A DNA stretch of 64,000 nt, taken from Cyanophora paradoxa CCMP329 (lineage: Eukaryota; Plantae; Glaucophyta). The stretch's first letter is position 1, and every line of letters begins with the position of its first letter. The stretch is from positions 20,730-84,729 of the forward strand of contig QPMI01000267.1 in NCBI GenBank assembly GCA_004431415.1, given 5' to 3'. The notes below the pieces were generated by a model. It did no database searches and was not told the DNA's origin. It saw only the letters and a program-made list of their open reading frames with translations. The position numbers and the translations under genes are program-made. Of the stretch, positions 10,630-62,269 are shown piece by piece.

Positions 10630-16109
<5,480 letters not shown>

Positions 16110-27700: not shown

Positions 27701-28394
27701 CGCGCGTCCGTTGCCTCCTCCGTCGCATCGGCGCCCTCAGCTGCGGCATCGTCGGCGGCATCGCCCGCTGCACCAGCCTCCTCCGCTGCCGCAAGCTCTG
27801 CCGACGCCCCCGCTGATTCGCGCGCGTCCGTTGTCTCCTCCACTGCATCGGCGTCTGGAACTGCATCGCCGGCGGGATCGATCACTGCACCGCTTTCCTG
27901 CGCGGCCGCAGGCTGCAGCGGACCTTCTGCAGATGCTTTCACATCCATCTCATCCGTTTCTTCCATCGCGGCGGTGTCTTCTGTGTCGTCGGCACCTTCA
28001 GTCGGATCGTCGACTGCGGTGGTCGCTGTGGTCTCCTCCGCCGCTGCCGGGGCAGGTTCCGGAGCCTCGGAGCTTTGCATATCGATCGCATCGCCCGGAA
28101 CGTGTGCTGCCTGTTGAGCTGCTTCGGTTAGACTGCCGGCAGGCCCAGCGTCCGTGTCAGCGTCCAAGGGCTTCGGGGCATCCTGGGACGATCGTAAGAA
28201 GGCAAGATGGCGAGAAAAAGCTTCGAGAAAACGCTGACAGGAGCGGGGTCCGAGTCGGAAAGCTGCCCGGGCTCCTTATCGAGGATTCCGTCAGAAGTTA
28301 GCGGATCTGCGAAGACGCTCGTTTTCAACGTCCGACTTTGAAATCTCTGATGCTATGCACTCGTACCTCCAGGCTGCTGGCCCTCCTCCGCCAT
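21743..28394 (-). CDS. Very long low-complexity protein: acidic 40-aa repeats, Lys/Ser basic patch, PGAVP repeats, coiled coil, Q/S/Y/A-rich C-terminus
   Basis: Start ATG 28394 (MAEEGQQPG|DPLTSDGILDKE...|DAPKPLDADT) joined through GT-AG introns to the 582-aa, 2250-aa and 773-aa open frames; ends YGSTWGS*. Confidence 0.75.
27013..27851 (-). repeat. 120-bp coding minisatellite (~7 copies) encoding EEATDARESAGASAEPAAAEEAGAAGDAADDAAAEGADAM-like repeats
   Basis: Sequence lines repeat at 120-bp period (27121, 27241, 27361, 27481, 27601, 27721) with few substitutions and no frame change. Confidence 0.95.
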
Positions 28395-28580: not shown

Positions 28581-29764
28581 ATGGCCGAGGAGCGCGAGGC
28601 GAAGCGCGCGCGCGTAGAAAGCTCGTCAGCAACGAGCGACGCACTGAACGTGGACACGAGCGACGAGCGGCTGCAGCTGATCGACCTCCCGGATGAACTT
28701 CTCCTTCGCGTTTTCTCGAGCTGCAGCGCCAACGCAAGCCGCTGTGCTCTCGCGAGGACGTGCAAGAGGCTGCACCAGCTGTCGAACTTGCCGGAAGCCG
28801 GGTGGCGCTATTTGCCGCTGCGCGTCAGCGTCGGGTGCTCTGCCGAGGACGCGTCGACAGCGAAGGCCGAATCTGTCCTCGGCGAGAGATTTGAGGGCCG
28901 CTTCATGTGCGCGATGCATTTTCTACCGGCTTGTGCGATGTGCAGCCAGCGTACGCACGCACAGGAGCGGGACGGAAGCGATCGAGTTTGCCTCCGAGCG
29001 GCGCTTCGGCCGCGTCACCACTCTTCGTTTCGTTTTCGCGCGGCGGCGGCCGCGGTCTACATCCGTGCAGGATTGCGAGGAGGAGCTGGCTGTTCTCGAC
29101 AGGTGAGGACGCGAGCGAAGACCTCGAGGAGCTATAGCTAGCGCTAGGCGGCGGCCCGAGTCGCCCGGGGGCGGCGCAGAGTGCTTGCGGGCGCCTCCTT
29201 CGCGGGCGTCGTCACGGACCTCTACCTGTACGTCTACAAGCCCGTGCTCTGCGAGGACGACGCCGGGGAGGGCGGCGGGGCGGGGGGGCAGGGCTTCTCG
29301 GCGATGCGGGAGGTGGAGCCGGGGGCGGACGAGGCAGAGGTTATCGCCCGGCGCCTCCCCAGCCTCCGCTCCGTGTTCTGCACCGAGGTGCCACCCCGCC
29401 CCGCCACCGCCCCCTGCGCACACTGCCGGCCCGAGGCGGCGCACAGGGCGGCCTGCGGACCTTCACGGGGCTCGCGCTGGGGGGCCTGCGGGGCCTGGAG
29501 CAGCTGCTGACGGCGCGCCACCTGCGCTCCTGGCACCTCCTCCTCGCCCTCTTCCCCCGCCTCCACCGCCTCTCCAACTGCGTCCTCTCGGGGGGCGCCG
29601 CCCCCCGCCCCCCGCGCCCCGCGCCCCGCCGACGGGCGCCCGCAGGAACGAGGGCCTCCGCCTCCTCGCCGCCCCCGACGCGGCGCGGCGCGGGCACGCC
29701 GCGGCGCGCCGCCTCTTCTTCGAACCGGCCGTTCTCTTCGCCCTCGGCCCGACCTCGCCGCCCG

Positions 29765-29796
<32 letters not shown>

Positions 29797-30740
29797 CGGA
29801 TCGCGGGGCGGCGCGGCCGCCCCTGGAGGTGGCCGGTCTGACCCTCGTAGGCCTCGACCTGCGCCTCCCCGGCGCCCTTGACGCCCTCGTCCCTCTCCTC
29901 GCCCGCGGCGTGCGCCCCCCGCCCCCGCCTATCCCCCGGCGCGGCCCCTGAGCCGCCTCCGCCAGGCGCGCTTCGTGACCCTCAAGGGGGCCTCGGGGGT
30001 GGCGGCCCTGCTGCGCGCCCTCGCCGCCCTGCCCCCGTCCCGCCCCTTCCTCGCCGCCGCCGCCGCGTGCCCCTCGGACTCGCCGGCGCCAGCGGTCGCT
30101 GCGACGACGGGCGGCTTCCACTTCGCGTTTGACGGCTGCGAATGGGGCACGCAGGAGGCGCGCCCCGCCGCCGGCCGCCTCCCAGCTCCCCTCACGCGCC
30201 CTCCCCGCAGCTCGCGGGCCTGGCGTCGCTCGGCGGGCGGGTGGAGAGCCTGCGCGTCGAGGGCCGCCCGCCGAGCAGCGCCGCGCCCCCGGCGGCTGCC
30301 CTGCTCGAGGCGGCGGCGGCGCTCGCGGCCCTCCGCCACCTCGAGCTCGCTTCGTGCCCGGGCGCCGTCCCCCTGGAGGCGACGCGGCGCCTCCTCGCCG
30401 CCTGCCCCCTCCTCGCCTCCCTCTCCCTCGCCAGGTGCCCGCCCCTGCCGGCGGCCCCGGCAGGCCTGCCCCTGAGAGGGCGCCAGGTGCGCCGCGCTGG
30501 AGGCCGGCGTGCTGGAGGCCCTCGAGGGGCGCCGGGAGGCGGCGGGGCGCGATGGGCGCCCCTTCGCCTTCGAGGCGCCCCCGAGGCCCCCGAGGCGGAG
30601 GGCGGTCCCGGAGCCTGCCCAGCCCTCTGACGACGAGTCCCCCCCCCCCCCCCCCCCTCCGAGCGCTCCGAGCTCTGCCGCGCCTGTTTGCGTCTTCTGC
30701 AGCGAAGAAGTGCGGTCGAAGAACAGGCGCGGCTCTGGGT
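28581..30740 (+). CDS. F-box/LRR protein (3' end approximate)
   Basis: F-box LIDLPDELLLRVFSSC...RCALARTCKRLHQL followed by LRR-like exons (LRHLELASCPG, ACPLLASLSLARC). Confidence 0.8.
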
Positions 30741-30745: not shown

Positions 30746-33700
30746 TCAGGGCGCGGGGAAGCAGGCAGCGTCGAAGGCGGCGCTGAGCTGCGGCCAGGCG
30801 GCGTCCGAGGCGAGGGACGGGGCGAGCCCCGCCGCCCGCATCCCCTCCGCCGTCGCCACGAGGAGCGCACGGGCCGCCCGCCCGAGCCGCCGCCCCGACG
30901 CGAGCGTCACGAGTCGCACTGCGAGGCCGTCCGCCGCCGCCCGCGCCGCGGCAACCGCCGCGGGTCTGCTCCGCCGGCGGGTCGGGCAGAGGGCGAGAAA
31001 GAGGGCGGGGAGGGTGGCGGGAGGGCGCGGGCAGCGGAGCAAGCGGCGAGCTCCGGGGCGGGGCACCCGAGGAGGGCGCCCTCGCCGGGGTCCTCCGCCA
31101 CCAGCGAGGGGCCGGCGGCGAGCGCCGCCCCGCCCTCGCCCTCGCCCTCGCCCGCGCCCTCGGCGGGTCGGCGCGGGGCCGGGGGCGCGGGCGGCCCAGG
31201 CGCGGGCGGCGTGGGCGAGGTAGCGGAGGAGGCCGTCGGGGCGCTCGGCGAGGGCCGCGAGGTCGAGCGTGTCACACGCCCACGCCGCCACCCGCCCCGC
31301 CCCGCCGCCTCCTCCCCGCGCCCCACCCCGCCAGCGCCCCAAGCGGCCGCGCCAGCGCCGGCGCCAGCGCCGCCCCCGCCTCCGACTCGCCGCACAGCTG
31401 CCGCCAGCGCGCGGCGGCGGCGGCGAGGGGCGTGCGGGGAGGGGCCGCCCCGCGGAGGCGAGGTGCGCGGCGAGGAGGGCGCCCTTGGCCCGCAGCACCG
31501 CCGGGGGCCGCGGAGGGCGGCGGCGACGGCGGCGGCGGCGGCGTCGCCGCCGCCGGCGTGGAGGGCGCAGGCGGCGGGGTCGCCGGCGAGGAGCGCCGCC
31601 CCCGCCTCGGGCTCCGCCAGCGCCGCCGCCTCCGCCAGCGCCCAGAAGGCCGCCTCCGCCTCCCCCGAGGGAAGAGCGCCCCGGCGGCCGGCGCGCAGCA
31701 GGGGCCGGGGCGGGGGCGGGCACGGGCCCGGTCGAGCGCAAGGGCGAGCGCGCGGTGGAGCTCGGCCCGGACGGTGGCGTGCAGCGGGGGCGACGGGAGC
31801 GCCAGCGCCTCCGCCAGGGCCTCCGCAAAGGGGCGCCAGAGGGCCCCGGGGCGCGCTGCGGGCGGCGGCGGCGGGGGCGCAGGCGTCGAGGAGGTCGGCG
31901 GCGAGCTTGCGGGCGCGCCCCGAGGAGAAGAGGGCGAGCAGCCGCGGCATCGCCCGCACGAGCGCCTCCCGCACCTGCCCCCGCCCCCGTCAGCGTGCGT
32001 CCCACCCCGCCGCCCCGCCCCCGCCCCGCGCGCCTCGGGCTCGAGGGAGGGCCAGCGGGCCGGCTCGGCGAGCTCCGAGAGGAGCGCCGCGGCGCGGGCG
32101 ACGGCCGCCGGGGAGCCCGGGGCCGGGCACGTGGCGCGCCCCACGAGCAGGAGCACGGCGGCGGCGCGCCCGCGGGGCCCGGCGCCGCTCTTGAGGGCGC
32201 GCTGCACGAGCGGCGTGTAGTCGAGGGGCGGGAGCGAGGCGGCGTGCCGCGCCAGCACCCGCAGCGCCCCCGCCAGCGCCTCTGCCGCCCCGCCGTCGGC
32301 CGCGGCGGCGGGGCGGGCCGGGGCGGAGGCGCGGGGCGGACCTGGGGCCGGGGCGGCGGCGCCGGGGCCGCCCTCGACGAGCTCGAGGAGGCAGCGGACG
32401 ACGCCTTGCCGCACGTTCGGCAGCGTCAGCGCCGCCCGCTCCCCGCCACCTGCGCCCGCCGCCGCCGCCGCCGCTGTGCCCGCCGTGAGGAAAAGCCTCG
32501 AGAGGGTGGGGAGGAGGGGCAGGCCGTTCGCACCGCTGAGGAGGCCGGCGCCGTCGCCGGCGGCTGCGGCTGCGGCGGCGGCGTGGCGGGCGGCGAGGCC
32601 GGCGACCGCGCCGAGGGCCATGGCGGCGAGGCGCCGGAGCTGCGACCGGCGGCTCGCAGGGCGGGGCGGGCGGGGCGGGGCGGGCGCACCTTGGAGTCGG
32701 CGTCGGCGTCGAGGACAGCCTCGAGGGCCTCCATCGCTTCCCGGCCGCCCCGCCGCCCCCGCCTCCGCCAGCGCCCGCGGCAGCTCCCGCACCCGCCGCG
32801 CTGCCGCAGCTGCCGCCGGCACCGCCGCCCCGAACGCCGCGCCGGGAGTCCCGCCGCGGGGGCCGCCACGAGGTCCGCCCCGAGGGCGTGCCCAATCGCT
32901 GCGCGTCGTTAGCAGAGAAGGCCGGAGAGGGTGAGCGGCTGGAGCATACCGAGAACGGCGGCGGCTCGGGCGGCCGGCGGGCGCTTCGCCGCGGCCGGCA
33001 CCACGGCCGCCCATCGCTCCAGGAGGGCGCGAGGGGCGTCGGGGCCGCCGGGGGCTGCCGGCCCGTACCCCTCCCGATCAAGCATCCGCAGCTGCGCGCC
33101 GGCGGGAGCTTGAGCGGCCGCGAGGGATCACAAAGGAGGGAGGGGCACCGCGGTGGCGAGGGCGGCGGGGCTGGCCCAGGCGAGGGGCCCGGATGCGTCG
33201 GAGGAGCCGGCGAGGGCGCGCTCGGCGTGGGCGCGCAGGGGCGCGAGGGCCGCCGCGACGCCCTCCGCGGAGAGCAGGTCGAGGGCGAAGCAGCGGGCGA
33301 GGAGGGGCGGGAGGGCGGCGCAGGCCCCCGCCGCTCGCCCCTCCACCGCCGAGTCCACCGCCTCCGCCGCCGCCGCCACGAGGCCCCGCAGCAGCCTGCG
33401 CCCCGCGCCCCGCCCGTTGGCGAGGGCGCGCCGAGCAGCGCGCGGCGCTCGGGGCGGGCCCTTGCATGCCGGCGGCCGCCGCGTAGGAAGCGGCACCGCC
33501 GAGGGCGGCGAGGGCGCCGCCCTCGTCCCACCCGGCACCGTCCGCCGCGCGCGGCGGCGGCTGCGCCGCAGGCTCTCCGCCGACTTCGCCCTGCGCGCGG
33601 CGTCGCGGGCGGCGGGGCGAGGCAAGGCTGGGGACGGCGGGCCTGCAGGGAGGGCGGGAGGCGGGCGGCGGCCAGGAGGGCCCGGAGGGCGTCGGTGGCG

Positions 33701-36700
33701 AGCTCGCGGCGGGCGCCGCGGCCGCCCTGCGCGGGACTGGAGTCAGCTGCGGCGGGACGGCCGAGGGCGGGGGGCTCGCTCGGGCTCGTGGGCGGCGGGG
33801 GCCCTCGGGGCCGTCCGCCTCCTCCTCGTGCGCGGCGAGGCCCTCCAGCACGCAGCCTGCGCCGCGTCGGCGCTGCCCCGGCCCCGCAGGCGCAGCGGCC
33901 CCGCAGGCGCCGCGCACCCAGCCCGAGGGCGGCCCCGCAGCGGCCCCACTCCCCAACCGCTGCGCCGCCTGTCACGTGCACGGCGCGCTGCGGGGCGGCG
34001 CGGGCGGCGGGCGACGCACAGGGGCTGGCGAGGGCGTCGGCGAGGGCGGCGAGGGCAGCTTGCCGCCGCGCCGTCTCCAGTGGGGGCAGCGACGCTGCGC
34101 GCGGGCGGCTCGGGCGCTGCGCCGCGCGGCGGGCCCGCAAGCACGCCGCACCCGCTGCGAATCCAAGGCCGGCGGCGGCGCCGAAGGCGAGCCAGTCGGC
34201 GCCCTCCTGGGAGGAGTTGAAGGGCGGGCGGGCGAGGGGCGGGGGCGGGGCGGACGTGGCGGGCGGCGAGGGCGGGGAGGAGGGCGTCCACGGCCGCCTC
34301 GATCACGGCGTGCGCCGCCGCCGCCTCCACCGGCACCGCCGCCCCCTGGTGCGCCCTGCCAGCCCCGCTCGGCCCCTCTCCTCGTTGGCGCGGCGAGGAG
34401 CCGGCGCGCACCGAATGGCGTCGTCGACGGCGGCGGCGAGGGTGCCGACGGCGAGGGCGGCGTTGAGGGCTGCCGCGGGGCCCCCCGGCGGCTCGGCGAG
34501 CGCCTGCGCGTTCGTCAGAGGCGCCGGGCCGCGCTGGAGGGCCGCGCGGGCCGGCAGCAGGCTCTCGAGAAGGGAGCAGGCCGCCTCGTGCAGCGCCGGC
34601 CAGCGCCCGCCGGCCTCCCCCTGCGCCGCACCTCGTCCCCGCGCGCGGGGCGAGGGCCGGGCGGCGCACCTTCGCAGACAAGAGCGGGCTCCCCGCGAAC
34701 TCGACGGGGGCCTGCGCCAGCAGGCACTCCCTGCGCGCGCCGGCGCCGAGGGGCCTCAGCGGAAGACCGGAGAAGGGGGCGGGGACGCTCGGACCGCATG
34801 AAGGCGCGCCAGGCCGGGGGCGCGGCGAATCGAGCGAGCCAGTCGGAGGCCGGCGGCTCTTGCAGCGCGTCCGTGAGCCGCCGGCGCGCCGCCCGCGCCG
34901 CCTCCTGCGCCGCCTCCTCCCTCTCGCGCCGCTGCCGCTTCTCCCCCGCCGTGCGCGCCGCCTCCGGCCGCGCCAGCGGGGCCCCCGGCGGGCAGTGCAG
35001 CGCCCCGAGGGCCGCGCCGGCGCGCACCAACGGAGGAAGGGGCGCCCCGCCGGCGGCGGCCGCGTCGGCGGCGGCGCGGACGCGCGCGGCGGCGGCGGCG
35101 GAGGCGCGGGCGGCGGCAGGGAGGAGGGCGTCGTGCGCCTCGGCGGCGGGGCGCGCGGCGGGGCCGGCCGCCTCCCGCCCCCCCTTGGAATCGCCCCCGC
35201 GCGGCTTGAGGGCGGTCCACTGGGCGACGCCGCGGCGCTGGAGCTCGGGGCCGGCGGCGGCCGAGAGGAGCGCCTCGCAGGCGTCGAGGGCGGGGCCGGC
35301 GCCGCGCGCTCCCTCGCGCCGCAGCAGCTCCGCGTATCGCGCGTAGTCCGGCTGCGGCGCCTCAGGCGGGGCGGGGCCGGCGGGGCGGGGGCGGCGGCGC
35401 GCGCCTCGACCTCGGGCTCCTCCTCCTCCCCCTCCCCGGCCTCGCCGGCCGCCTTCGCCGCCTCCCCGCCCCCCTCCTCCTCCTCCTCCTCTGCCTCCTC
35501 GAGGGTGCCGGCCTCGAGGGCAGCCACGAGCTCCGGAGTGAAGGCCGCCTGCGGGGAGCCTCGGCGTGGTGCGGCCCCGGCGGGGCGGCGGCCGCACCAG
35601 AGCCTCGTAGGCCGCCGCCCGCACGCCCTCGGGGCCTCCTCCGAGCGCGCCGCCGCCCAGAGCCGCCGCAGCACGCCGGCCGCCTGCGGGGCGCTCAGCG
35701 GGGCGGGGCGCGGGGGCGGGGCGGGGCGGGGGCGCCTGGGCGGGGCTGGAGGCGGCGTCGGCGGCGGCGTGGCCGAGGAGGGCGAGGAGGGCGCGCTCGG
35801 GAGCGGGTGGAGCGGGGCGGGCTCGCCCTCGAGGCGCAGGAGGCGGCGCGAGACGAGGACGCGGAGGACGGTGTAGAAGTCCAGCGCGTCCGCCCCGCAC
35901 AGCGCGTCCAGCGCCTCCAGCGCCCCCGCAGCCGCCGCCGGGTTCCCCTCCCGCAGCGCCAGCGCCCCCTGCCGGCCGCCTCGCCGGGGCGCTGGTGGGG
36001 CGGGCGGAGCGGGCGGCGGGCGTGGGCGCGCCTGGATGAGGTGGAGGGCGTCGAGGGCACGGCGGGGTCGGCAGCGGGCGACCTCGCGCAGCGCCCCGCA
36101 CACCGCCAGCTGCAGCTCCCGGTCCCCCGGCGACCCCGCCTCCGCCTCCTTCGCCGCCCCCGCCAGCGCCTCCAGCAGCTGCCCCCCGTCAGGCCCCGCC
36201 CCGCGCGGCGGGCGGCGGGCCGCGGGCCTTGGGGAAGAAGCGGTCGGTCCTGCGCCAGAGGTCGAGGTAGAGGGTGAGGGCGGCGGGGCGCGCCGCCTTG
36301 ACGGCGAGCAGCGGCTGGAGGGCGCGGATGACGGGCGTGAGCGCGGCCGGAGGCGACGCCGCGCTGACGAGGTGCGGGAGGCAGCGGAGGACGCCGAGCT
36401 GCTCTGCCGCCGGCACCCGGTTCGCCGCGTGCAGCAGCACCGGCAGCGCCGCCGGCCCCAGCGCGGCGCCCGTGGCGGGGCCGAAGGCGCGGGCTCGGAC
36501 AGCGGCGCTGGGGTGGAAGGCGAGGGCGGCGAGGGCGGCGCGGTCGGGCGGGGCCAGCCGGCGGGCGGCGGCGGCCTCGGCGAGCCCGTCAAGCCAGCGG
36601 AGGGTCGCCGGCGGCGCCTCGGCCCCCCTGCAAAGGCCGCCGCCAGCGCCGCCCGCAGCGCCGCCAGCTCGCCAAGCTCCCCCGCCGCCTCCCACTCCGG

Positions 36701-37961
36701 CCTGCACCCGCCCGTGGACTCCGCACCAGGCCCGGGAGCGTCGGTCTCGGCGGCGGCGGCGGCGGCTTCGATGGCGGCGCGGGCGGCGGGCCCGGCGGCG
36801 AGGGGAAGGGCGAGGAGGGCGGCGGCGCGGGCGAAGGCGGCGTCGGCGGGGGCAGGGGCCCGGCGGCGGCGAGGGCGGCGCGGAGGGCGGCGGCGGCGGC
36901 GGCGGCGTCCTCGTCGCCCCCGCGTCGGCCTCGAGGAGCAGGGCGGCCGCCCCGAAGGCCTCCTCGGGGCCCGCCCCGCCCCCTCCAGCGCCGCCTCCAG
37001 CGCCCGCGCCGCCCCCGCCGCCGGCAGCCCCGCCCGCGCGCTCTGGCCCGCCCCCGGTCAGCACGCTCCGCGGGGCGTGGCCACGCGGGGTGCGAGAGGG
37101 CAGACCCGGATGCCGTGGGCGAGGAGCAGGGAGAGGAGGGCGCGGCGGGGGCGCCCGGCGGGGGCCCGGGGCGGCGAGGAGGCGCGCGTGGCCTCCTCCA
37201 GCGCGGCCGCGACCTCCGCGAGGGGCGCCCCGGGGCGCGCCGCGTGCCACCGGAGGCCCGCCGCGAGGGCCGCGAGGGCGCGCGCCCCGCACTCCCCGCC
37301 GCCGGCCGCGAGGCCCGCCAGCCAGGACTGCACGAGCGGCCGCATCGCGGCGCGCTCCGGCGGCGGGCTCGGCTCCCGCAGGGCGAAGGCGGCGAAGGGC
37401 TCGAGGCGGGCGAGAACAGCGGCGGCGGCGGCATCGCCGTCGGCCTCGGCGGCCTCGACGGCGCGCTGCGCCTCAAGCAGGAGGTGCTGCCACGCGCCAG
37501 GCCGGTTCGCCCGCACGCAGAGCACGAAAGGGTGCGCCTCGAGGGCGGCGGCGGCGCCGGGCTCCGGGAGGAGGCGGCCGAGGCCGCGGGCGATGGGCGC
37601 GAGGGCGGCGGCAGGCGCCACCGAGACCGCCGAAAGCAGGTCGTTGAGAACGCGGTTCCGAAACGCCTCCGAGCGGCCCGCGAGCTCCGTCAGCGCCTCC
37701 ACCGCCGCCTCCACCACGCGCGCCCGGCCGTGCTTTAGCCTGCGCTCTGTCAGGCCCAGCGCGGCAGAGCGGCGTGGCGCGGGCGCACCCTTTCGACGAG
37801 AGGAGCTCGTACAGCGGCTGCGCGGTCGCGCTGGGACAGGCGCAGCCGGGCGGGAGGCTCGCCTTCAGATAAGCGCCGGCCTGCTCGACTGCATCGCGTG
37901 CGATCGCATCCACCGGCACGCGCAGCTTCTCCCCGACCGCGGCCGGGTCCGGCGCTTTCAT
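30746..37961 (-). CDS. FOCAD: Focadhesin / RST1 ARM-repeat protein (a few apparent frameshifts)
   Basis: Segments matching the family pattern: HPFVLCVRANRPGAWQHLL, LYLDLWRRTDRFFPKLLEAL, LAVCGALREVARCRPRRALDALHLIQ, LEALDALCGADALDFYTVLRVL, EWGRCGAALGLG, LPPLDYTPLV. Confidence 0.85.
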
Positions 37962-40396: not shown

Positions 40397-43300
40397 ATGG
40401 CCTCGCCGACGTCTGCACGAGACAGCGCGCGGCTCACTGCACGCTCGAGTGTTCCCACAGCCGGCTCCTCTCTTCGCCGGCCCAGCAGCGCCGTCGAATC
40501 TTCGAGCCGTACAGGCAGTTGGGCGAGCGTGCTGGGCCCCGGCTCGCTGACGGCACGGGGAAGCTTGACGCTTCGGGACAAACCGCAAGCGAAGTCGTTG
40601 ATCGAACCCTCGCGTGCGCCAGGCGCCGGCCTTCCACCGCTCTATTGAGCTCACCCGTTGCCGCAGATCCGGTGTTCTGGTCGACGCCGCTGGACCCCGG
40701 CGAATGCCTCGAGCTTGCGATGCACCGGCATGCGCTTCAGAAAGCCGCGGGCGCCAGCACGGCGGCGGAAGCAGGCGAGGCGCACACGGCGTCAGCGGGG
40801 AGCATCCACTCCCCGAATCCGCACCGACGCAGCGCCCCCAGCATGCCGCCGCGGCCGGCGTCCGCGCCGCGCGCCCGGCCGCCTAGCGCCGGGCGCGACG
40901 CCACGCGGACGCTGCTAAGCGCGACGCCGGAGCACCCGCCGCGGCCAGAGTCGCCGGCACCGGGCAGCCGAAGCAGCACGGCCCGCTGACCTTCGTCAAC
41001 GTGCCCACGGGGCCCCTGCCCCCTCGCCGCTCGCCCTCCCGACCCGGTCCACACGCGGCCCGGCGGCCGGCACACGCCGACGGCCCCGCGGGGGCGCCCG
41101 CGGCGGCCGCCGCGGCCGGCGTCGGCCTCGCGGGCGCGGCCGGCATCGGCGCAGCGGCCGGTCTCGGCGGCGTCGAAGCAGGAGGGGAAGGGCGGGGGAG
41201 CGGGAGCGGTACGGGGCGCTGCGGCGGCGGATTGCGGAGGCCGGGGCGGTGCGGGTGTACCTCTGCTGCGACTTCGACGAGTTCCGAGAGGAGCGCGAGG
41301 CGCTCCGCCGCGAGTCCGCCCGCCTCCGCCGCCTCTGCGAGGACCGGTGCCGCCCCGCCCCTCCGCCCCCCGCCGGCGCCCCGGCCTGAGCCGCGCCGGC
41401 GCTGACGCAGGGGCGTTTCATTCGACTGGGTCGACATGCGCTGGGGTCCGGCCGGGCGGGCCCGCGGGAGGGGGCGGGGCGGGGCTGAGGGGCGCGCGGG
41501 CGGGGCGCAGGGCTGACGGGGGAGGAGAGCCGGCAGCCGGAGATGCTCGTGCGGTGCCTGGACGAGGTTCGGCGCCGGCGGGGCGGGCGCGGGGAGGGGC
41601 GCGGGCCCACGCGGGCCGGCAGGTCGAGCGCGCCGCCCCCTTCTTCGTCGGCCTCCTCGGCAACCGCTACGGCGAGACCGCCGTGCGCGCCCGCGCCCGC
41701 CCCCAGCCCCCGTGGCGCCGGCGAGCCGGCGGCAGGCGCCGGGGCTGGAGGGGTACGACTCGCCGGTGCGGGCGGCCTTCGACGCCGCCGTGCGGGACCC
41801 GCGCTTCGCCTACCTCGACGGGTGCGCCCGCGCTGGGGCGGGGCCGGGAGGGGCGACGGGCGGCAGGGAGATGCGGCGGTGGTCGCTGGCGGCGTGCGAG
41901 GTCTACCACGCCCTCGAGCGCGCGGGCGCCTCCCCGCGTCGAGGGCCTCCCGACGAGCCCGCCCCGCTGGTCCCCGCCCCACCCCGCCCCGCCCCGCCCC
42001 GCCCCGCCCGCCCCGAGCCCCTCGCCGCTGCCCGCAGAAGAAGAGGAGGACGGGGACGGGGCGCTCTTTCCGCTGCACGCGCCCTGGAACCTGCCGGAGT
42101 GCAAGGGGATCTACTACCGGGACCCGGCGCTCTCGGCGGAGGTGGCGCGGCGCGAGGGCCTCGCCGCCGAGCCCGAGGACTCGCACCGGCGCCTCCACTT
42201 CCTCAAGGCGAGCCCCGCCCGCCCCGCTGGCCCGGCGCCCCCGCGCGCCCCGCGCCTGAGCGTGGTGCAGCGCAAGTGGGTCCCCGTCAAGGCCGAGACC
42301 TACCCGGGCCTCCGCGTCCGCTGGTCCCCCGACGCCGGCTACCGGGTGCGGGCGCCGGGCGGGCGGCCGTTGCGGGGCGGGGGCCGAGGGTGCGGGGCGG
42401 GGGGCAGAGCGTGTCGGAGCTGGTGGCGCGCGTCCTCCGCGACCTCGAGGACCTCCTCTCCAAGTGGGGCCCCTGCCCCCGCCCCCGCTGCCGGCGCCCG
42501 CGCCGAGGCCCGCGCCCCCCGCAGGGTGCTGTACCCCGTGGAGGAGGCGGTGCCGCGGCTCGCGGAGCGGGTGGCCCTCATCGCCGAGTCCCGCCACGCC
42601 GCCATCGTCCGCGCCGCCTGCGACACGTCCGCCCCGCCCGCCCGCCGCCCCGCGCCGCCTCACGCGGCCGGGGCGGGCGGCAGGTGGCGGCGGGCCTGCA
42701 GCGGCACGAGGCGCTGGTGAAGGTGAACGGGGCGTTCGCGGCGGGGCGCGGGTGGTGGTCGTGAAGGGGAGGCCGGGGCGGGGAAGACGACGCTGGCGGC
42801 GCGCTGGTTCGCGTGGGCGCGCGAGGAGGACCCGAGGCCCTCGCCCTCTTCCACTCCACCGACGCCGGCCACACCGCCCGCTCCGGTGCCCCCGGCCCCG
42901 GCCCCGGCCCCGGCCCGGGCCGGGCCCGCCTGACGCCTCCGGCAGCTGTCGGCGTCCTGGGGCGCATGGCGCGCGCCTCGGCACCGGCCTCCGCCCCCGC
43001 CGGCCCCGCTCTCGGCGTTCGAGAAGAACGCGCGGCACGAGAGCGCGCTGGCGGAGGCCGGGGGGCGGGTGCAGCGGCTGGCGGCGGCCTTCCGGCGTGC
43101 GCGGAGCAACGCGATCGTGCTGGTGCTGGACGGGGCGGCGGCGCTGCTGGACGAGGAGGAGCGGCCGCTCGGCGCCGTGCTGCACGCCGTGCTGCGGCCG
43201 CTCTTCGCGGCCGGGGAGCGCGCGGTGCGGGTGCTGGTGACCGTCCCTGCGGGGGCGGCCACCGACCTGGACGAGGCGGCCCTCTCGGGGGAGAACCCGC

Positions 43301-45547
43301 TGGCGCCGGCCGCGACAAGGAGCGCGAGCCGGGCCGCCGCCCATCGCCTTCGTCGCGCTGCCGCCCCTCGAGTCGCGCGAGGAGCGCCTGCGCGTGCTCG
43401 CCGCCCTCGCGGGGCGCCTCCCGAGCGGCCCCCGAGGCCTCCTCGCCCGCCTCGCCCTCGAGCCCGCGCCGCCTCCCCGCCTTCCTCCGCCTCCTCCTCC
43501 AGCGCGCCCTCGCCGCCGGCCTCCCGACGCCCTCGGCGCCCAGCTCGAGGCCTGCTCCTCCCCGTCGCCGCGGGGGGCGCCAGCCCGCGGCCCCGCCCCG
43601 CCTCCCCGCTCCCCGTCGCCCCGGGCTCCTCCCTGCACGCGCTCGTCTCGCTGGACGGGCGGCGGGCGGCGCTGGCGCTGGACCTGCCGCTGGGCGAGCT
43701 CGCGGAGAAGTACCTCGCCTGGGGCGACCGGGAGCGCTCCTCGGCCGCCTCGGCCGCCCGCCCCGCCGAGGCCTACTTCCGCTTCATCGAGGGGGCCACG
43801 CGCGAGCGCTCCCCGCTCCGCGCCCTCGAGTGCGCCCGCCTCCTCCTCCTCCCCTACGGCCGCGCCCAGGGCGGCGGCTGGTCGGACGCCCCCGCCCTCG
43901 GCTCCGGGGACGCCGCGGCGCTGCGGCGGGCGGACCTCGCGGCGCTGACGGGCCGCGGGAGGCGGCCGAGCGGCGCGCCGCGTGGCTCTACGACGCCGGC
44001 CTGCCCCCGGTGCGCCCCGCCCCGCCTCCGGGGCCGGCGCGGTTTCCGGGGGCGCGCGCCGACGGGGCGGGCGGGCGGCAGGTGCTGTTGGACGCCCTCC
44101 GCGCGCAGTTGCGCCACATGTTCGCCCCGGCGCCGGCCCCGCCGAGCGCCCCGCGGGGGCGCCGCCGCCCTCTCCGGGGCACTCGGGCCCGCGCGCCCGT
44201 GCCGCATGGGCCGCTGGTGGCGCTGGTGCAGACGGTGCTGGCGATGCTCTACGTCGAGGAGGCCGCCGCGCTCCGCCGGCGGGCGCGCGGGGCGGGGGCG
44301 CTCGCGGAGCCCCTCTCCCGCCTCGCCTCGCTGCTCGCGCGCTTCAAGCCCTGGAGCGGCCTCGGCCTCGCCACCCCTCCTCGAGGCCGACGTGCCTCCC
44401 CCGCCCGCCCGCCCGCCCCGCCCGAGCGTCGCCAACGCGCCGCCCAGGTCCGCGTCCTCCTCGACTCTTCTGACGGCGGTCCGACCCCTCACCTCGCCCC
44501 CCGCCGCCCCTCCGCCGCTGAGGGGACCGCAGGGGACGCCGACGGGCGGGGCCGGCGGGAGGCGGCGGCAGAGGCCGCGCGGGGCCGCCTGCAGATCGCC
44601 CTCGCCGGTCACGTGCGCTCGCCTTAGGCGCCGGGCTCGGCCGGCCCGGCGCGGGCTCACTCGCGTGCGGGGCGGCAGGCGGCGGAGCTGGCGCCCTCGC
44701 TGGTGGGCGGGGAGTCGCTCTCGGCGCTGGCGGAGGCGACGGTGGCGTCGGCGCTGGACCGGGCGGCGCGCGAGCTCGGCTCCTCGAAGCCGGCCGAGGT
44801 GCTCGTCTTCGCCGTCGCCCTCTCCAGCGCCGGGCCCTCCGAGGCCGACCTCCTCGCCCTCACCGACTGGACCCGCGACGAGTGGCGCCGCGTCTGCGAG
44901 GCCCGCCCCCGCCCCGCCGCCCCGCCCCCGCCCCCGCCCCCGCCTCACGCCCCTCTCAGCTCATGGGCCCCGTGCTCGAGCGCTCGGGGGGGCGGGTCTC
45001 CTTCACGGATGCGCGCGTGGCGCAAGCGGCCCTCGACGCGATCATGGACGGCGACGGGACGCCGGCCGGGCGGCACGGCGCCGCCCAGCGCCGCGTGGAG
45101 TGGCACAAGTTCGCGGTGCGCAGCGGATACGCGTCGGAGGTGCGGCGGGCGGAGGAGGAGAGCTACCACAAGGCGTGGCTGAAGCGGCCCGTGGGGTGCG
45201 CCTGCGGGCGGTGCGACGAGTCGCGCATCCAGGTGCTCGGGGCGCTCCCCAAGCGGGCCAGCGCGGCGCGGCACGTGCCGCCGGACGGCCTCGTGGGGAA
45301 GGCGGCGCGCTTCGCCCCGAACCTCGCCCGGCCCCTCGTCCTCCCCCGCGAACAGCTCGTGCGCCTCGGCGCAAGCCATCCCTCGCTCTTGCAGATCGGT
45401 GACGGCGCGCAGGAGGACCGGATCGGGCGGCTGTACAGGACGGGGACGGCGCGGATGAGGCGGGAGGTGGAGATGCGGGCGGAGGAGAAGCAGGCGGCGG
45501 CGGCGCGCGCCGCCGCCAACAGGGCTTACGTCGAGCAGCTCCGCGCC
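40397..45547 (+). CDS. DUF4062 + P-loop NTPase protein (TEP1/NPHP3/TTC41-like architecture), 5' part; last exon interrupted by the Polinton-like element
   Basis: VRVYLCCDFDEFREEREAL..., GVSFDWVDMRWG, RCLDEVERAAPFFVGLLGNRYG (DUF4062 pattern); a Walker A-like VVVKG.AGAGKTTLAARW and a Walker B-like IVLVLDGA. Confidence 0.8.
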
Positions 45548-45974
45548 AAAAAATGAGAGAGGACCTGATTCTGTGGCCCACCCCTCTTCACCACCCTCAC
45601 CTCTCCGAACCCACCCCAACCCACCCAATCCAGCGTCTTCCCAGCCATCACTCTCGCCAACCCTTCCGCTACGTCTACCGCCCTTCTCTCCCTCTGGTCT
45701 ACCTCCCCTTCCATCCAGCAACCACTAGGTACTATCTAACGTCTACTCCAATCGATCTTGCAAAAGATATAGCAGTGATTTGAGACGGGCCCCAACGCGA
45801 CGGTCTGCAGAGATAGCTTAATCAGCAGCTAGGCGTTAATACTGTGTTCTTCCTATCTAAATAGCGGAGAGGTTTCCAGGTTCTAGCTAGACGATAAAAC
45901 TATATAATCGAAGCTGATTGCATATGCGAGTTTAGGTTCTAGTTAGTCAATAATACTGTGTGGATGATAGCGCC
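45548..45974 (+). repeat. Left terminal inverted repeat (427 bp)
   Basis: Reverse complement of 56164-56592; I see only two homopolymer-length differences and one substitution. Confidence 0.97.
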
Positions 45975-45981
45975 AGTAGCA

Positions 45982-47029: not shown

Positions 47030-47032
47030 CTT

Positions 47033-47930: not shown

Positions 47931-47974
47931 CTTTACAACAATATGCATGAAAATTTTCTGGTCTATAATAGCAA

Positions 47975-51979: not shown

Positions 51980-51988
51980 CTTTGTAAA

Positions 51989-56034: not shown

Positions 56035-56163
56035 TGGAAGTATATATCACAATTTTTTTGCTTGTTCCAAACGCAACTTCACATAGCAATATTGGAAAGG
56101 GATCTCTTTAAGACAAAATAAGAGAAACCTCAATTGCGGTGACCCTTTGGTGATTCAAAGACC

Positions 56164-56592
56164 GGCGCTATCATCCACACAGTATTATTGACTAACTAGA
56201 ACCTAAACTCGCATATGCAATCAGCTTCGATTATATAGTTTTATCGTCTAGCTAGAACCTGGAAACCTCTCCGCTATTTAGATAGGAAGAACACAGTATT
56301 AACGCCTAGCTGCTGATTAAGCTATCTCTGCAGACCGTCGCGTTGGGGGCCCGTCTCAAATCACTGCTATATCTTTTGCAAGATCGATTGGAGTAGACGT
56401 TAGATACTACCTAGTGGTTGCTGGATGGAAGGGGAGGTAGACCAGAGGGAGAGAAGGGCGGTAGACGTAGCGGAAGGGTTGGCGAGAGTGATGGCTGGGA
56501 AGACGCTGGATTGGGTGGGTTGGGGTGGGTTCGGAGAGGTGAGGGTGGTGAAGAGGGGTGGGCCACAGAATCAGGTCCTCTCTCATTTTTTT
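56164..56592 (-). repeat. Right terminal inverted repeat (429 bp)
   Basis: Reverse complement of 45548-45974; followed by TSD CGCGCC. Confidence 0.97.
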
Positions 56593-57018
56593 CGCGCCCG
56601 CATCCGCGGCGACAAGGCCCGCGAGGCCGCCGAGCGAGCAGCCCGTGCCCGTGCTGCCGCCGCCGCCCAGGAGACCCAAGCCGAGGCGGCCGCCGGCGAA
56701 ACTGAAGGTGCTCCCGCGCACCCCGGCTCTGGAGCCTCGGCGGCGCCGGCGCCGCCATCGCAGTCCAGCCCGTCTGTGGGGGCCGGCTTGCTCTCAACGA
56801 AGCCCGGGTGCCCCCCAACCACCCCTTCCGGGCCCGCAAGCTCGGTCAGGCGTGCATCCTCCGCGGCCGCCGCCCCTGTTGGAGACCCCAAGGCCGCCCT
56901 GCAGTCGCAACCGCAACCCGGACGCAGCGATGAAGTGCGGCACTTGCACCCTCACCGGCCTCTCCACGGCGACGTAGTGTCACCCGTGGCGCCGGCCGTT
57001 CCTGTCACGTCCCACTGA
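56593..57018 (+). CDS. Displaced 3' end (~140 codons) of the DUF4062/NTPase gene
   Basis: Removing the element and one TSD joins YVEQLRA to RIRGDKAREAAERAARAR...VTSH* in frame. Confidence 0.8.
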   Translation, partial: RARIRGDKAREAAERAARARAAAAAQETQAEAAAGETEGAPAHPGSGASAAPAPPSQSSPSVGAGLLSTKPGCPPTTPSGPASSVRRASSAAAAPVGDPKAALQSQPQPGRSDEVRHLHPHRPLHGDVVSPVAPAVPVTSH

Positions 57019-57449: not shown

Positions 57450-60400
57450 ATGGGCGGCGACCCTGACAACGTCGCCGGCGGGCCGGCGGCGGCCGCCCGC
57501 TTGACCGCGCGGCTCAAGCAGCCTGCCGCCGGGCAGGAGCGTCCGGTCGCCGCGGACGGCCTCGACCTCCTCGAGCTGACCTTCGACTTCGGGGGCGCCT
57601 CGGAGGCCGAGCTCCCGGACGTCCGGCTGCTCATCCTCGCGGACCACTCGGGCTCGATGGCCGGCTCTTGGGAGCGCAACGTCGTCCCCGCGATCAAGTG
57701 CGCATCGCCATCGAACGCGCCCGCCCCTCTGATCATGAGGCGGCGGCAGGTACGTGTACGAGCAGGCGATGCAGGCGGGGAACGTGCACCTCACGCTCGT
57801 CACCTTCAACGACAAGGCCAAGGTCGTGGACTCGGACGCCTTCCTCTCCGAGCTCGAGAAGACGCGCGCGTCCGGCGGGACGCACTTCGGGGCCGCCTAC
57901 GAGCGCGTCCTCGAGGTCCTCGAGGCCGACAAGGCGGAGCTCGAGCACCCCGCGCACCCCGTCTCCCTCGTCCTCGCCCTCTTCACCGGTCCCCGCCCCC
58001 GCCCCGCCCCGCCCGCCACGCCACGCCGCCGGCCGAGGCGCGGCGCAGACGGGCAGGACGGGCAGCGCGCGGCGTCGAAGCGCTCGTTCGAGAAGCTGCA
58101 GGCCCGCCTGCGCGCCCTCGGCCCCGGCGTGCCCTCCGTCTGCCACTGCATCGGCTTCACCTCGTGCGCACGCCCGCCGCCCCCGCCCGCGCACGCCGGC
58201 GCCCCCGCCGACCGGCGCCCCGCCCGCCCCGCCCGCCCAGGAGCATCGACATGCCCCTGCTCGACGTGAGCCGCCGGCCCGCGCGCCGCGCCGAAGAACG
58301 CGCGGCAAAAACTGAGGCGGGGGCGGCAGGGGATCCGGCAGGGCCTGGGGACGCAGGCGGGTGAGTTCCAGTTCGCGGCCGCCGACGAGGCGGAGGGCCT
58401 CAAGGAGCGCCTCGAGCTCGTGCGCCCGCCCCGTCCGCCCGCCCCGCCCGCCCGCCCGGCCTCACGCCCCGCAGCTGGTGCACGTCGCGGCCCTGGGCCC
58501 CGCCGCCCAGCGCGCCGCCCGCGCCACCGTCTCCCTGGAGGGTTACACCATCGTCGAGGAGAGCCTGGTGGCGCCCTCGGCGGGGGCGACGGCGACGCGC
58601 GAGCTCCGCCCCGACGCCCGCGGCGCCGCCTCCCTCGCCCTCACCGTCCGCCGCAACCCCGCCACCCGTGCGCCCCCGCCCCCGCCCCCGCCCCGGCCCC
58701 GCGCCACCGCCCCCGTGACCCGGCGGCAGCGGCGGACACGCCGCTGCTCGTTCAGGCGGTGCTGAGCGGCGAGGCGGGCCCCGCGGAGCTCTCCTGCCTC
58801 GCCGAGCCCGACGGCGCCTCCACGCCCTTCGCCCTCGCCAACGTGCGCCCCGCCCCGCCCCGCCCCGCCGGGCCGCCGGGCCGCGGGGCCGACGGGGCGG
58901 GGCAGCTGGGCCTGCTGGTGTGCGATGCGCGCATCGAGGCGCTGGGCCGCTCGTGCGCGGGCGTCAAGGAGGGGGCCCCCCTCGTCCCCGACTGGGCGGA
59001 GCGCCTCAAGGGCCTCGCCGCGGCGGTGGCGGGGGCCAAGCAGCCGCAGCAGCTGCGGGCGCTCGGCAACCGCAGCCACGCCCGCGCCGCCGTCCTCGAG
59101 CTCGCCGACTCCCTCACCAAGCAGGCCCGCCCCGCCCGCCCCGCCCCCGCACCGCACCGCACCGCCCGCAGCTGACGCCCCGGCAGGTCTCGCGCCTGAT
59201 GGAGTCCCTCACGGCGCTCGTCGCCGGCTCCTCCTCCACCGGAGACCGCGCCCGCATGGCCGAGGCCCGCCCGCCCCGTCGCCGCCCCGCCCCGGCCCGG
59301 CCCTGACGCCGCCGGCAGATCGCGTACGGGGCGACCTTCGCCAAGGCGCGGCGGGCGCGCATGATGTCCACGATGGCGATCCGCAACGCGGCGGCGGCCG
59401 ACGCGCTGGAGGCGCGGCTGAAGGCCTTCTCGACGGACCTGGACCGCGTGGGCAGCGTGCCGGCCGAGTCGCTGGCGCTCTTCCGCTGCTCGCTGACGAC
59501 GTGCGGGTGGGTGGACCTGCTGCTCGGCGCCGAGGGCCCCGGCGGCGCCGAGGGCGCCGAGGAGCGCGACATCCTCGGCTTCGGGGTGGCCGTCGGGCGC
59601 CCCGAGCACGTCGTCGACGACCCCAACCACCTCCGCATCTACGCCGTCTCCGTCCGCCCGCCCCGCCCCGCCCCGCCCCGCCCCGCCCCGCCCTCCCCGG
59701 GCGCCGGCGAGCGGGGGAGGGGCCACAGAGCACGCTGGCGGCGCGCACGGCGTTCATGGACGCCGTCAAGTTCGGGATCGAGGTGAAGGGCGCGGAGGCG
59801 ACGCACGGCGGCTTCCGCCTGGGCTCGGCGGAGGCGGGGCCCCGCGGCGTGGCCTTCACGGGGATCGCCCGCGAGCCCGTGAACGCGTGGATGCCGCTCT
59901 TCATCGCCCCCGCCCACTGGGAGCTCGCGCGCCTCCTCTGGAAGCCCTCCCTCGCCTACTTCGTCACCCTCAACCCCGTCCGCCCCGGCCCCGCCCCGCC
60001 CCGTCCCAGGCCCCCGCCGCGCGCCTCTGACGGGCCGTCCGGGCGTGCAGATGGCGTACGGGGAGAAGCAGGGGGACGCGGCGCTGCTGCTGCTGGGGAC
60101 GATGGCGACCCGCGCGCGGCAGCCGTCCGAGCGCGAGGCGGCGCTCCTCTTCGCCTACCTCCGCACCGCGGCGGCGGCCGCCCAGGACCCCGAGACCGGC
60201 ATCGGCGAGCGCGCCCGCGCCATGCTCGCCCGCTTCCTCCGCGACGCCAAGAGCGTCCAGAGTGCGCCCCGCGCCCCACGCCTCGCACCCTGCCCCTCGC
60301 GCTCGAGCTCGGGGCCGACGGGCGGGGCCGGCAGACCTCGTGTCGCTGCTGGGGGCGCTGCTGGCGCTGCCCGACGAGGAGCTGGCGGCGCTGGTGCCGG

Positions 60401-62269
60401 ACGCGGCGGCCGAGGCCTGGCTCTGGGAGACCTTCGTCTGCGAGGCCCTCCGCCGCTCCGTCTACTCCCTCTTCGCCCCTGTCCGCGCCGACCGCGACAA
60501 GCGTGACGACCAGACCGGCTACGCGCACCGCCTCGGCGCCCTCGTCGACGCCCTCCTCGCCGGCGACCCCGCCCTCGCCGCCGCCGGCCCCGAGCAGGCC
60601 CCGGCGCTCGCCCCCGCCCGCTTCCCCGCGGTGGCGGAGGCGCTCCCGGCGGCGCTGGACGCGCTGCACGAGTCGCGCATGGCGGCGCTGGCGGAGGGGG
60701 ACGGGTCGGAGGCGGAGGCGGAGGCGGCCTTCGCGGCGCGGGCGCGGGCGCTGCTGGTGAGCCCCGAGGCCCTGCGCGAGGCGCAGCGCTCGGCCTACGA
60801 GAAGTCCGCCGGCGCCTCTTTCGAGGCCTACGCCGACGCCTCCTACAAGCGCTACTACAAGGCCCGCCCCGCCCCGCCCCGCCCTGCCCCCGGCCCGCCC
60901 CGCCTGAGGCCGGCGCAGAAGGAGCGGCGGGTGGTGCGGCGCCTGGGCCGCTCGACGCGCATCTTCCAGGCCTGGGAGGGCGAGGACGAGGTCCGCCCCG
61001 CCCGCCCCCGCCCGCCCGGCGCCGCCGACCCCGCCGCAGAGCTCGCCCCTGCGCGCCGAGTGGCGCGAGTACCTCCGCGCCACCATGGCCTACGCCGCCG
61101 CCGCCTCCGCCGCCTCCCCTGCCACCCCACGGCCCCTGCAGCGGTCCCGCAGCGGCCTCCGCAGCGGCGCCCGCCCCGGCAGCCGACGCGCAGCCGGCGG
61201 CCGGCCCGTCGGAGGCGGCGGGCGGCGCCGGGGCGGCTGAGGGCGGGGCGGGGGCGGCGCGTGCGCACGCGTGGGCGTGGCTGGCGGCGCGCTTCAACGA
61301 GCGGGGCATCCCGATGCTGGGCCAGATCCTCTCCGCCCTCACCGTCCTCGGCGCCTGGCGCCGCATCGCCCGCGCCGCCGGCGGCACGGCCGCCGCGTAC
61401 GCCGTACTCGACGGCAACGGGGGCGTCGCCCCGGCGGCCTGGGTGGGGGCCCTGCGGGAGGCCCTCGCGGAGCGGGAGGCGGCGCCGGAGGACTTCCGCA
61501 CTCTCTTCGGCCTCCTCGGCTGGGCCCTCCCCGAGGAGGCCCTCCCCGCCGCCCCCGCCGCCCCGCCACCTTCGCCTCCCGCTGGTGGACCCTCTACTCC
61601 CACGGTGCCCCGGCCCCGCCCCGCGGGCCCCGCCCCGCCCCGCCGGCCCCGCTGACGTCGGCACCCCCGCAGAGGAGGCGGGCGCCGTGAAGGCGGGGGC
61701 GGAGGCGGCGGGGGCGGCGCGGGCCGTCGTCGTGCACGCCACCCAGATGAACGTGCGCGCCCCGCCCGCCGCCTCCCGCCGTGCCGGGGCCGACGCGGGG
61801 GCCCCGGCAGGTGACGCTGCAGATGATCGAGCTGGAGAAGGACGCGGCGTACCGCAACCCCGTGCGAGACCCGGCGGGGTACCTCGCCTACGTGGCGGCC
61901 CTGCGCGCGCGGGAGGCGCGCGCGGCGTACGAGGCGCGCAAGGGCCGGGCGCGCGACGAGGCGCTGATGTCGGCGATGGAGCGGACGCGGGAGCTGGCGG
62001 CCTTCGCGGGGATGGTGCGCGAGCTGACCCCCTACCGCGCCCACAAGAAGTTCACGGCCCTCCTCGAGCGCTTCGCCACCCCGGGGGCGGCCGCCATGCC
62101 CCTCGGCCCCGCCAAGCTCCGCCTCCTCCTCTCCGGCGTCTACGAAGAGGGCGGGCTGGCGGCCCCCATCCTGGATGCCGGGCGCCCCTGGGCCCCCGCC
62201 CGGCCCCTCGCCGCCAAGCTCGCCGCCACCTGGGGCGCCGCCGCCTCCGCCCCCGTCGCCGCCGCCTGA
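57450..62269 (+). CDS. von Willebrand factor A domain protein with long uncharacterised C-terminal region, many short introns
   Basis: LLILADHSGSM (MIDAS DxSxS), LVTFND, SGGTHFGAA, LALFT|DGQD, HCIGFT; downstream RPEHVVDDP, HGGF, REPVNAWMPLFI; stop at 62269. Confidence 0.88.

Follow-up and report, generated by a model that had tools for sequence, protein, structure and literature searches.

Related silent-site patterns

Silent-site skews linked to splicing or to nucleosomes are known from Ectocarpus, yeast, and Trichomonas. The subject here is a skew of this kind in the glaucophyte Cyanophora paradoxa CCMP329, in a 64,000-nucleotide (nt) stretch of contig QPMI01000267.1 (assembly GCA_004431415.1, positions 20,730 to 84,729 of the forward strand), which is called the window and whose coordinates are used throughout. 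Its genes, among them the one at 57450..62269, are written in alternating blocks of G-ending and C-ending codons. All statistics come from eight genes within this one window, in which the blocks represent an extreme new variant of the known splice-linked or nucleosome-linked skew.

The fourfold-degenerate sites of Ectocarpus have an antisymmetric G/C skew at exon ends, which was ascribed to splicing (Wu et al. 2013, PMC3787667). As in C. paradoxa, C is avoided at exon 5′ ends and G at 3′ ends, with purine-rich 5′ and pyrimidine-rich 3′ hexamers (PMC3787667). However, the Ectocarpus skew is described as 'somewhat' antisymmetric within a mostly symmetric trend, and the introns are large (PMC3787667). 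The pattern in the window is near-deterministic in single exons (12% versus 70% G at the two exon ends), continues through introns of 45–80 nt, and forms blocks deep inside exons.

In yeast, the 5′ end of mononucleosomal DNA favours A and the 3′ end T, and C and G show a weaker asymmetry (PMC5703254; Quintales 2015, PMC4422121). This palindromic purine-5′/pyrimidine-3′ asymmetry is present in codons and leaks into amino acids, like that of C. paradoxa. The yeast signatures are defined on mapped nucleosomes of 150 bp, involve mainly A and T, and are averages of tens of thousands of sequences (PMC4422121, PMC5703254). In contrast, the C. paradoxa pattern concerns G and C, is visible by eye, varies in length, and is tied to introns. 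Nucleosomal signatures of yeast are reportedly also the subject of Gonzalez 2016.

Codon usage in Trichomonas has a nucleosome periodicity of 120.9 nt (Chen 2008, PMC2577358). In both organisms the long-range structure is strongest at third codon positions. The Trichomonas rhythm is one of GC content with a fixed period, is strongest at the 5′ end, and has G- and C-ending codons in phase (PMC2577358), whereas C. paradoxa has a loose period, opposition of G and C, and its weakest signal at the 5′ end. Introners that enter nucleosome linkers (PMC9860276) likewise place introns at recurrent positions of a local sequence landscape. In the window, intron spacing is unphased and introns resemble simple CCCCG/GGGGC tracts; Cyanophora is not named in the main text of that paper. 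N6-methyladenine (6mA) marks the starts of genes in many protists, according to a study whose samples included C. paradoxa DNA (PMC12695648). No description of the block pattern in a glaucophyte was found in the literature searched, whose coverage leaves out supplements and most subscription papers.

The gene at 57450..62269

This plus-strand protein-coding gene has 17 exons, 16 introns of 49–77 nt, and 1272 codons in one open frame. Ten of the introns appear as joints in contigs of three sequencing runs. The RNA status of these runs is a guess, backed by their GT..AG joints, and they are called presumed RNA runs below. The remaining six introns lie in stretches passed over in the contig comparison and are consistent with the contig offsets and the open frame. 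No substitutions are listed in the gene against the three presumed RNA runs or one DNA run, and the window is short of three single C's. This lack of substitutions shows that the block pattern is not an assembly artefact. The N-terminus of the product is presumably vWA-like, judged by eye, and a Pfam search with six single exons gave no match.

The initial annotation reported that codons within one exon were G-ending at 60340–60430, C-ending at 60440–60625, and again G-ending at 60630–60790. The fourfold sites of the three intervals comprise 18 G and 4 C (n = 22), 40 C, 3 G, and 2 T (n = 45), and 32 G and 7 C (n = 39), respectively, in agreement with this description. All three lie within the 527-nt exon at 60335..60861, over which contigs of presumed RNA are unbroken from 60335 to 60853. 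The exon comprises two full G-to-C cycles, with switches near 60409, 60628, and 60762, and its internal C-to-G switch is intron-free. The 565-nt exon at 61040..61604 contains internal C, G, C, G, and C blocks, and the presumed RNA contigs are unbroken over 61038–61603. A single switch divides the 333-nt exon at 59319..59651 into a G part of ~204 nt and a C part of ~127 nt; together with the intron, this cycle measures ~410 nt. The last exon (61811..62269) is G-ending at its start, and its final 17 fourfold sites before the stop are all C. A typical intron, at 58843..58905, has a GT donor, a (CCCCG)n first half, and a G-rich second half with a branch-like motif and CAG; it contains a C-to-G switch, and its acceptor coincides with the start of a contig piece from the presumed RNA runs. 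The earlier count of roughly 13 cycles over ~3.8 kb is close to the 14 C-to-G switches that a hidden Markov model gives in 58400–62269.

Lock to splice sites and stop codons

Seven further genes were modelled with a custom parser, and these models are predictions. During training of the parser, G and C were treated as one class at fourfold sites and in intron bodies, which kept it from using the skew there. Regions near frameshifts were masked, 80 introns were kept, and 15 doubtful ones were dropped. The kept introns have a median length of 59 nt and comprise 59 GT and 21 GC donors; 17 of the GC donors follow AG. By eye, window introns have no U-rich polypyrimidine tract from the branch-like motif to CAG. 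For genes other than that at 57450..62269, the presumed RNA contigs confirm two long unbroken exons and three boundaries, and no more.

The main organiser of the blocks, which the initial annotation missed, is a lock to splice sites and stop codons. The sign of the blocks is fixed at splice sites, with C before and just inside donors, G around and after acceptors, and C before most stops (five of the six genes with readable ends). On both strands, G occupies 50 of 419 G/C fourfold sites (12%) in the 30 nt that precede donors and 331 of 476 (70%) in the 30 nt that follow acceptors. The minus-strand genes alone give 21/171 and 147/191. Of 67 introns, 46 are flanked by C upstream and by G downstream, 11 by C on either side, and one has the reverse arrangement. 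In a second, similar count, the share of introns with the C-to-G arrangement is 72% of 67, compared with 17 ± 5% (maximum 36%) in 1000 shifts.

Synonymous usage varies with distance to splice sites. The effect is not confined to ~70 nt of exon ends, and strong blocks are present more than 90–100 nt from both ends. Logistic regression assigns separate effects to neighbours within ~40 nt, to the donor (z −6.1), and to the acceptor (z +4.6). The exon end remains C even where the intron start is G-rich (state −0.48, 13 introns), and in 36 exons of 72–333 nt the position of the switch scales with exon length. Exon state also tracks the adjoining intron end (rho 0.46 and 0.56, n = 69), and the G content of an intron is higher when the exon before it is short (rho −0.43, n = 45). 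Introns had been said to follow the local block as (CCCCG)n or (GGGGC)n. Some are indeed wholly G-rich, but most contain a C-to-G switch, and G/(G+C) climbs from 0.27 to 0.61 along 71 introns. Half of the 90 C-to-G walls are at a confident intron, and the other 45 are not.

Coupling between silent sites

In the eight genes, 0.695 of 3733 pairs of adjacent fourfold sites agree in G or C, compared with 0.507 ± 0.008 in family-preserving shuffles (z 23). The G/C state of a silent site follows that of neighbours up to about 40–60 nt away, across codon families and exon–intron borders. The blocks are equally coherent more than 100 nt from any splice site (nearest-neighbour z 5.9, 1593 sites). All eight fourfold codon families switch together, and the coupling is 0.691 between different families and 0.714 within one, which bears out the earlier assertion that protein sequence and tRNA preference cannot explain the pattern. 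Codon autocorrelation by tRNA reuse was rejected because the coupling is not restricted to the same amino acid, and the equal coupling across families argues against codon slippage. Amino acids follow weakly, with E:D, Q:H, and M:I ratios higher in G blocks (p 0.005–0.013), and codon positions 1–2 also move from purine to pyrimidine. A difference in CpG between the block states was discarded, the density being equal at 0.478 and 0.481 per codon.

The blocks had been described as absent from a viral element in the window and as fading at gene 5′ ends, and both statements hold. In the inserted element, agreement is 0.496 versus 0.502 in shuffles (248 pairs), with skew autocorrelation of about zero. 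In the first 200 nt of genes, agreement is 0.52 (116 pairs, four genes), and it is partial up to 400 nt. The dinucleotide ApT reaches 21–26 per kb near the starts of four genes, compared with 6–11 per kb further in. Blocks are absent from the element at 46–56.5 kb and from the repeat at 1–8 kb, both of ~50% GC, in a window without GC-rich intergenic DNA for comparison.

Five control loci were taken from a metagenome motif scan, comprising two bacterial-looking loci and three short eukaryote-looking contigs. The bacterial-looking loci, of 76% and 67% GC, show no coupling (neighbour agreement 0.517 and 0.473). Four models in the three GC-rich eukaryote-looking contigs are also uncoupled (0.48–0.52, 84–402 pairs each). 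These contigs (L003:250-303, L004:135-207, L005:545-617) share a GTGCGC(CCCG)n intron start and a CTGA branch motif, without exonic G/C blocks. High GC alone is ruled out as the cause by these controls, and the block pattern is apparently lineage-specific.

Block lengths and periodicity

The median block length is 91 nt for G (n = 86) and 104 nt for C (n = 77), with 10–90% ranges of ~30–190 nt. The 72 cycles have a median of 202 nt, quartiles of 147–272 nt, and a coefficient of variation of 0.49, versus 0.57–0.59 ± 0.05 for memoryless blocks; individual cycles span ~120 to 410 nt. The initial annotation proposed autocorrelation against shuffled controls, and such an analysis gives a strong excess at short range but no regular period. 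In the gene at 57450..62269, fourfold G/C autocorrelation relative to within-family shuffles has z +23 at 0–30 nt, about −8 at 120–210 nt, +4 at 270 nt, and +7.6 at 540 nt. At long lags, z-scores against independent shuffles exaggerate periodicity, and telegraph and Gibbs nulls were used in their place. The echoes at 270 and 540 nt are absent or weak in the held-out genes.

A fixed-period wave is rejected by the irregular block lengths in long exons. In 11 long-exon interiors (12 correlated bins), chi-squared is 6.1 for memoryless, 4.5 for mildly regular, and 41.8 for regular blocks. Intron spacing is continuous and without steps, 23 of 76 adjacent spacings are below 147 bp, and introns are unphased. 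No 10-bp periodicity was detected in seven dinucleotide classes, by a weak test in which detrending with a 31-nt average depresses all lags below 16 nt.

The periodogram has a broad hump at 280–300 nt, which is sharper in genomic than in spliced coordinates and thus points to DNA or pre-mRNA rather than mRNA. Coupling, opposite pulls of donor and acceptor, and irregular internal blocks act on DNA or pre-mRNA. A simulation with short-range coupling and splice-site pulls only reproduces a hump at 260–280 nt. Negative coupling at 97–132 and 181–240 nt remains after splice-site terms (z −2.3 and −3.8).

Predicted RNA folding

All RNA structure results are from predicted folding. Native windows of 30, 45, and 60 nt are 0.85, 1.46, and 1.55 kcal/mol less stable than synonymous shuffles (p ~1e-5), and there is no difference at 150 nt. 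Around 52 introns the total predicted stability is unchanged (−0.558 vs −0.558 per nt). The branch-point zone of these 52 introns is more open than in shuffles (0.366 vs 0.321, p 0.009), and in short windows the openness of the nascent donor is modestly higher (0.374 vs 0.332, p 0.004). Pairing of exon flanks across introns also exceeds shuffles (11.3 vs 6.4 pairs, p 0.005).

Selection for local fold-back or G-quadruplex (G4) structure had been suggested for the blocks, and neither finds support. Short windows are less stable than shuffles, pairing of own relative to foreign arms has z-scores of −1.2, +1.0, and −1.7, and the lengths of a G block and the next C block are uncorrelated (rho 0.07, n = 71). 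Exonic G4 motifs number 8 versus 8.4 in shuffles on the sense strand and 16 versus 13.2 on the template strand.

Origin of the blocks

The blocks may plausibly, if tentatively, be attributed to selection on unspliced RNA, in the form of a like-next-to-like coupling that is pinned at splice sites. At ~80% GC, mixed G and C would form very stable short hairpins, and placing like beside like would weaken them. For a spliceosome that reads introns of 45–80 nt, an open branch point and an unpaired donor region made of C only would be advantageous, so that each exon would have to carry one G-to-C wall. If very long G or C tracts were costly (R-loops, template G4), block length would have an upper limit, which would yield the loose rhythm of 200–300 nt. 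Consistent with this reading are the splice lock, the donor and acceptor terms that persist beside neighbour terms, exon ends that remain C beside G-rich intron starts, the scaling of the switch with exon length, the memoryless interiors of long exons, the simulated hump and its greater sharpness in genomic coordinates, the weaker short windows, the more open branch-point zone and nascent donor, and the weak polarity of the same sense in Ectocarpus (PMC3787667). Several observations weigh against this explanation. The weakening of short windows is just ~6–10% of the folding energy, and segregation of G and C weakens short hairpins automatically, so that the result fits the idea without proving it. 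The donor gains no openness in longer windows (0.260 vs 0.293; 0.337 vs 0.322, p 0.3), and the acceptor is no more open. The simulation gives a trough of −0.03 ± 0.01 at 90–120 nt, versus −0.11 observed, and a peak power of 4.7 ± 0.6, versus 7.2 observed (12 runs). This shortfall and the residual negative coupling leave some longer-range balancing force unexplained. Bacterial genes of 76% GC and the three GC-rich eukaryote-looking contigs with the CCCCG intron start lack coupling (0.48–0.52), which indicates that high GC is insufficient and that the explanation lacks some factor specific to the lineage. A/T is more frequent at internal C-to-G walls than at G-to-C walls (17/228 vs 21/630, low-complexity gene excluded, p 0.014), as would be expected of linkers. 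Finally, reverse complementation leaves the pattern unchanged, so that RNA and DNA causes cannot be told apart by the strand lock alone.

The last two points agree with a nucleosomal signature, a possible but doubtful origin. On both strands, the DNA of a nucleosome would be purine-rich in its 5′ half and pyrimidine-rich in its 3′ half, as a result of chromatin-coupled mutation, repair, methylation, or positioning selection, and introns would lie in linkers at C-to-G walls. The palindromic purine-to-pyrimidine asymmetry, running G to C across exons on either strand, has the direction of yeast mononucleosomal DNA (PMC5703254, PMC4422121). Leakage into E:D, Q:H, and M:I, as in yeast, and the negative coupling that persists past splice-site terms are also consistent with it, as are the G-richer introns after short exons, as if two close introns shared one cycle. 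The pattern fades at gene starts, where ApT is 2–5 times commoner and where such a zone carries 6mA in many protists (PMC12695648), and some algal introners prefer linkers (PMC9860276). The nucleosome phasing proposed in the initial annotation is nevertheless unproven. Its yeast-like direction and the residual anti-correlation at 100–240 nt stand beside long-exon interiors without a regular period, cycles of very unequal length, unphased introns that often lie closer than 147 bp, and no 10-bp signal. Moreover, real splice-site flanks are not A/T-rich (21/734 vs 158/3190), and the known nucleosome-linked codon rhythm, strongest at the 5′ end with G- and C-ending codons in one phase, is the opposite of the pattern here (PMC2577358). 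Neighbour-dependent mutation, repair, or conversion is an unlikely source. Without any selection for the pattern itself, such a process would propagate local purine/pyrimidine state across tens of bases, seeded by selected C-rich intron starts and G-rich intron ends. Memoryless block lengths, the smooth decay of coupling with distance, the tracking of adjacent intron ends by exon state, and the equal CpG density of both states agree with it. Against it are the splice-site pulls that persist after neighbour terms, the C enrichment before stops, and, for codon slippage in particular, the equal coupling across families. To our knowledge, no mutational process has a range of tens of bases, which also counts against it.

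A pure splice-motif code appears improbable. It would combine G-rich enhancers after acceptors with C-rich enhancers around donors, and would keep cryptic G|GY donors and branch-like motifs rare. Exon-end effects are strong and have a precedent in Ectocarpus (PMC3787667), counts fall below those of shuffles for GGY before donors (141 vs 174) and for branch-like motifs after acceptors (19 vs 30), and 21 of the 80 introns use GC donors. However, coherence is undiminished more than 100 nt from splice sites, 45 of the 90 C-to-G walls are off confident introns, and C is also enriched before stops. Least credible, and very improbable, are the RNA options of the initial annotation, namely G4 structures or selection for long stems in which G and C blocks fold back on each other. 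The predicted pairing across introns exceeds shuffles, and exonic small RNAs are widespread in C. paradoxa (PMC3700990). On the other side, complementarity is unspecific, arm lengths are unmatched, total folding energy is not improved, and G4 motifs show no enrichment in exons. Apart from its cause, the pattern could, as a speculative proposal, amount to another, nearly deterministic code written over all silent sites of this lineage. An attraction at short range and a repulsion at longer range between G and C would phase-separate gene bodies into blocks, with walls marking exon centres and intron positions. Such a code may also place nucleosomes, define 60-nt introns, and bend the choice between Glu and Asp and between Gln and His.

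Other genes and features of the window

The window has 67% GC, its gene bodies reach 78–85%, and its eukaryotic genes are dense and intron-rich. The C. paradoxa assembly has 67.6% GC and 9.2 introns per gene, and its authors call the gene structures problematic (PMC6704402). Single C's or G's that are present in contigs of other runs are missing from the assembly at 61124, 61145, 61560, 33796, and 36622 and within 41922–43462, where ten such sites are listed, and these missing bases create false frameshifts.

The initial annotation placed the blocks on both strands in genes labelled VPS4, FOCAD, and NTPase, and all seven genes beyond that at 57450..62269 carry them, again on both strands. The labels VPS4, F-box, and vWA were recognised by eye from translations and are presumptive. 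The VPS4-like gene (14130..16109, plus strand) is predicted to have 11 introns in a frame that is open without frameshift, and its exons run from G to C. Its entirely G-rich introns include 14605–14663, 14999–15060, 15458–15519, and 15991–16054. A search with an exon of this gene gave a single hit. A predicted coiled-coil-like gene (10630..12997, minus strand), whose 5′ part is unmodelled, has the same polarity on its own sense strand, cycles of ~105–235 nt, and a 594-nt exon with two cycles. The long minus-strand gene at 30746..37961, for which the label FOCAD is unchecked, is predicted with the same polarity and is unbroken over 36228–36831 in a presumed RNA contig. The predicted P-loop NTPase-like gene, likewise labelled in the initial annotation (40720..45556, plus strand), has this polarity too. 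It is unbroken over 42945–43546 in a presumed RNA contig, and its close-set introns alternate between C-rich and G-rich. Two further predicted plus-strand genes share the polarity, one at 19596..21457 with 3 confident introns and an F-box/LRR-like one, named by eye, at 28581..30630 with 5 confident introns and a weaker pattern. In the predicted low-complexity gene (21743..27866, minus strand), with exons of 1.4–2.3 kb, blocks are weaker and irregularly spaced. The acidic N-terminus of this gene is coded by a 120-bp tandem repeat at 27035–27853 (6.8 copies, 96% matches).

Three short housekeeping-like genes have lower GC, namely an SDR-like gene (16898–19075), a gene for a small mitochondrial-like protein, named by eye (38480–39300), and EF1B (9342–10397). 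A 71-residue exon of EF1B is 100% identical to EukProt record tig00001126_g7120.t1, and the model agrees with the EukProt protein except for a stretch of ~20 residues that is retained in the model. Introns and flanks of the SDR-like and mitochondrial-like genes are rich in ApT palindromes (ATAT, GATC, CATG), as at gene starts, and these regions are possibly a 6mA zone.

The inserted element at 45548–56591 measures 11 kb, has ~48% GC and terminal inverted repeats of ~430 bp, and is flanked by a 6-bp direct repeat. It contains an HNH-AP2 open reading frame. Inspection by eye adds an integrase-like reading frame and a DNA polymerase B-like gene that frameshifts split into several pieces. PHROGs and PDB searches with the reading frames tried gave no match. 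It presumably resembles a Polinton-like virus. The element apparently interrupts the NTPase-like gene within its last coding exon, and the frame of the gene seems to resume at ~56592–57018. A 40-bp tandem repeat (46048–46217, 4.2 copies) lies just inside its left inverted repeat. By eye, positions 1–7550 comprise a head-to-tail repeat of ~1.45 kb in roughly five near-identical copies, with ~53% GC.

Significance for C. paradoxa

Effects of splicing or chromatin on silent sites usually need averages over thousands of genes, whereas here they are readable by eye in single exons. C. paradoxa could therefore cleanly test whether splicing, RNA folding, or nucleosomes shape synonymous codons. Estimates of codon usage and synonymous divergence (dS) that assume independent sites would be wrong for this genome, and transgenes may need the block pattern. 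The G-to-C polarity of exons is also a free signal for gene prediction in a genome with gene structures that its authors describe as problematic (PMC6704402).

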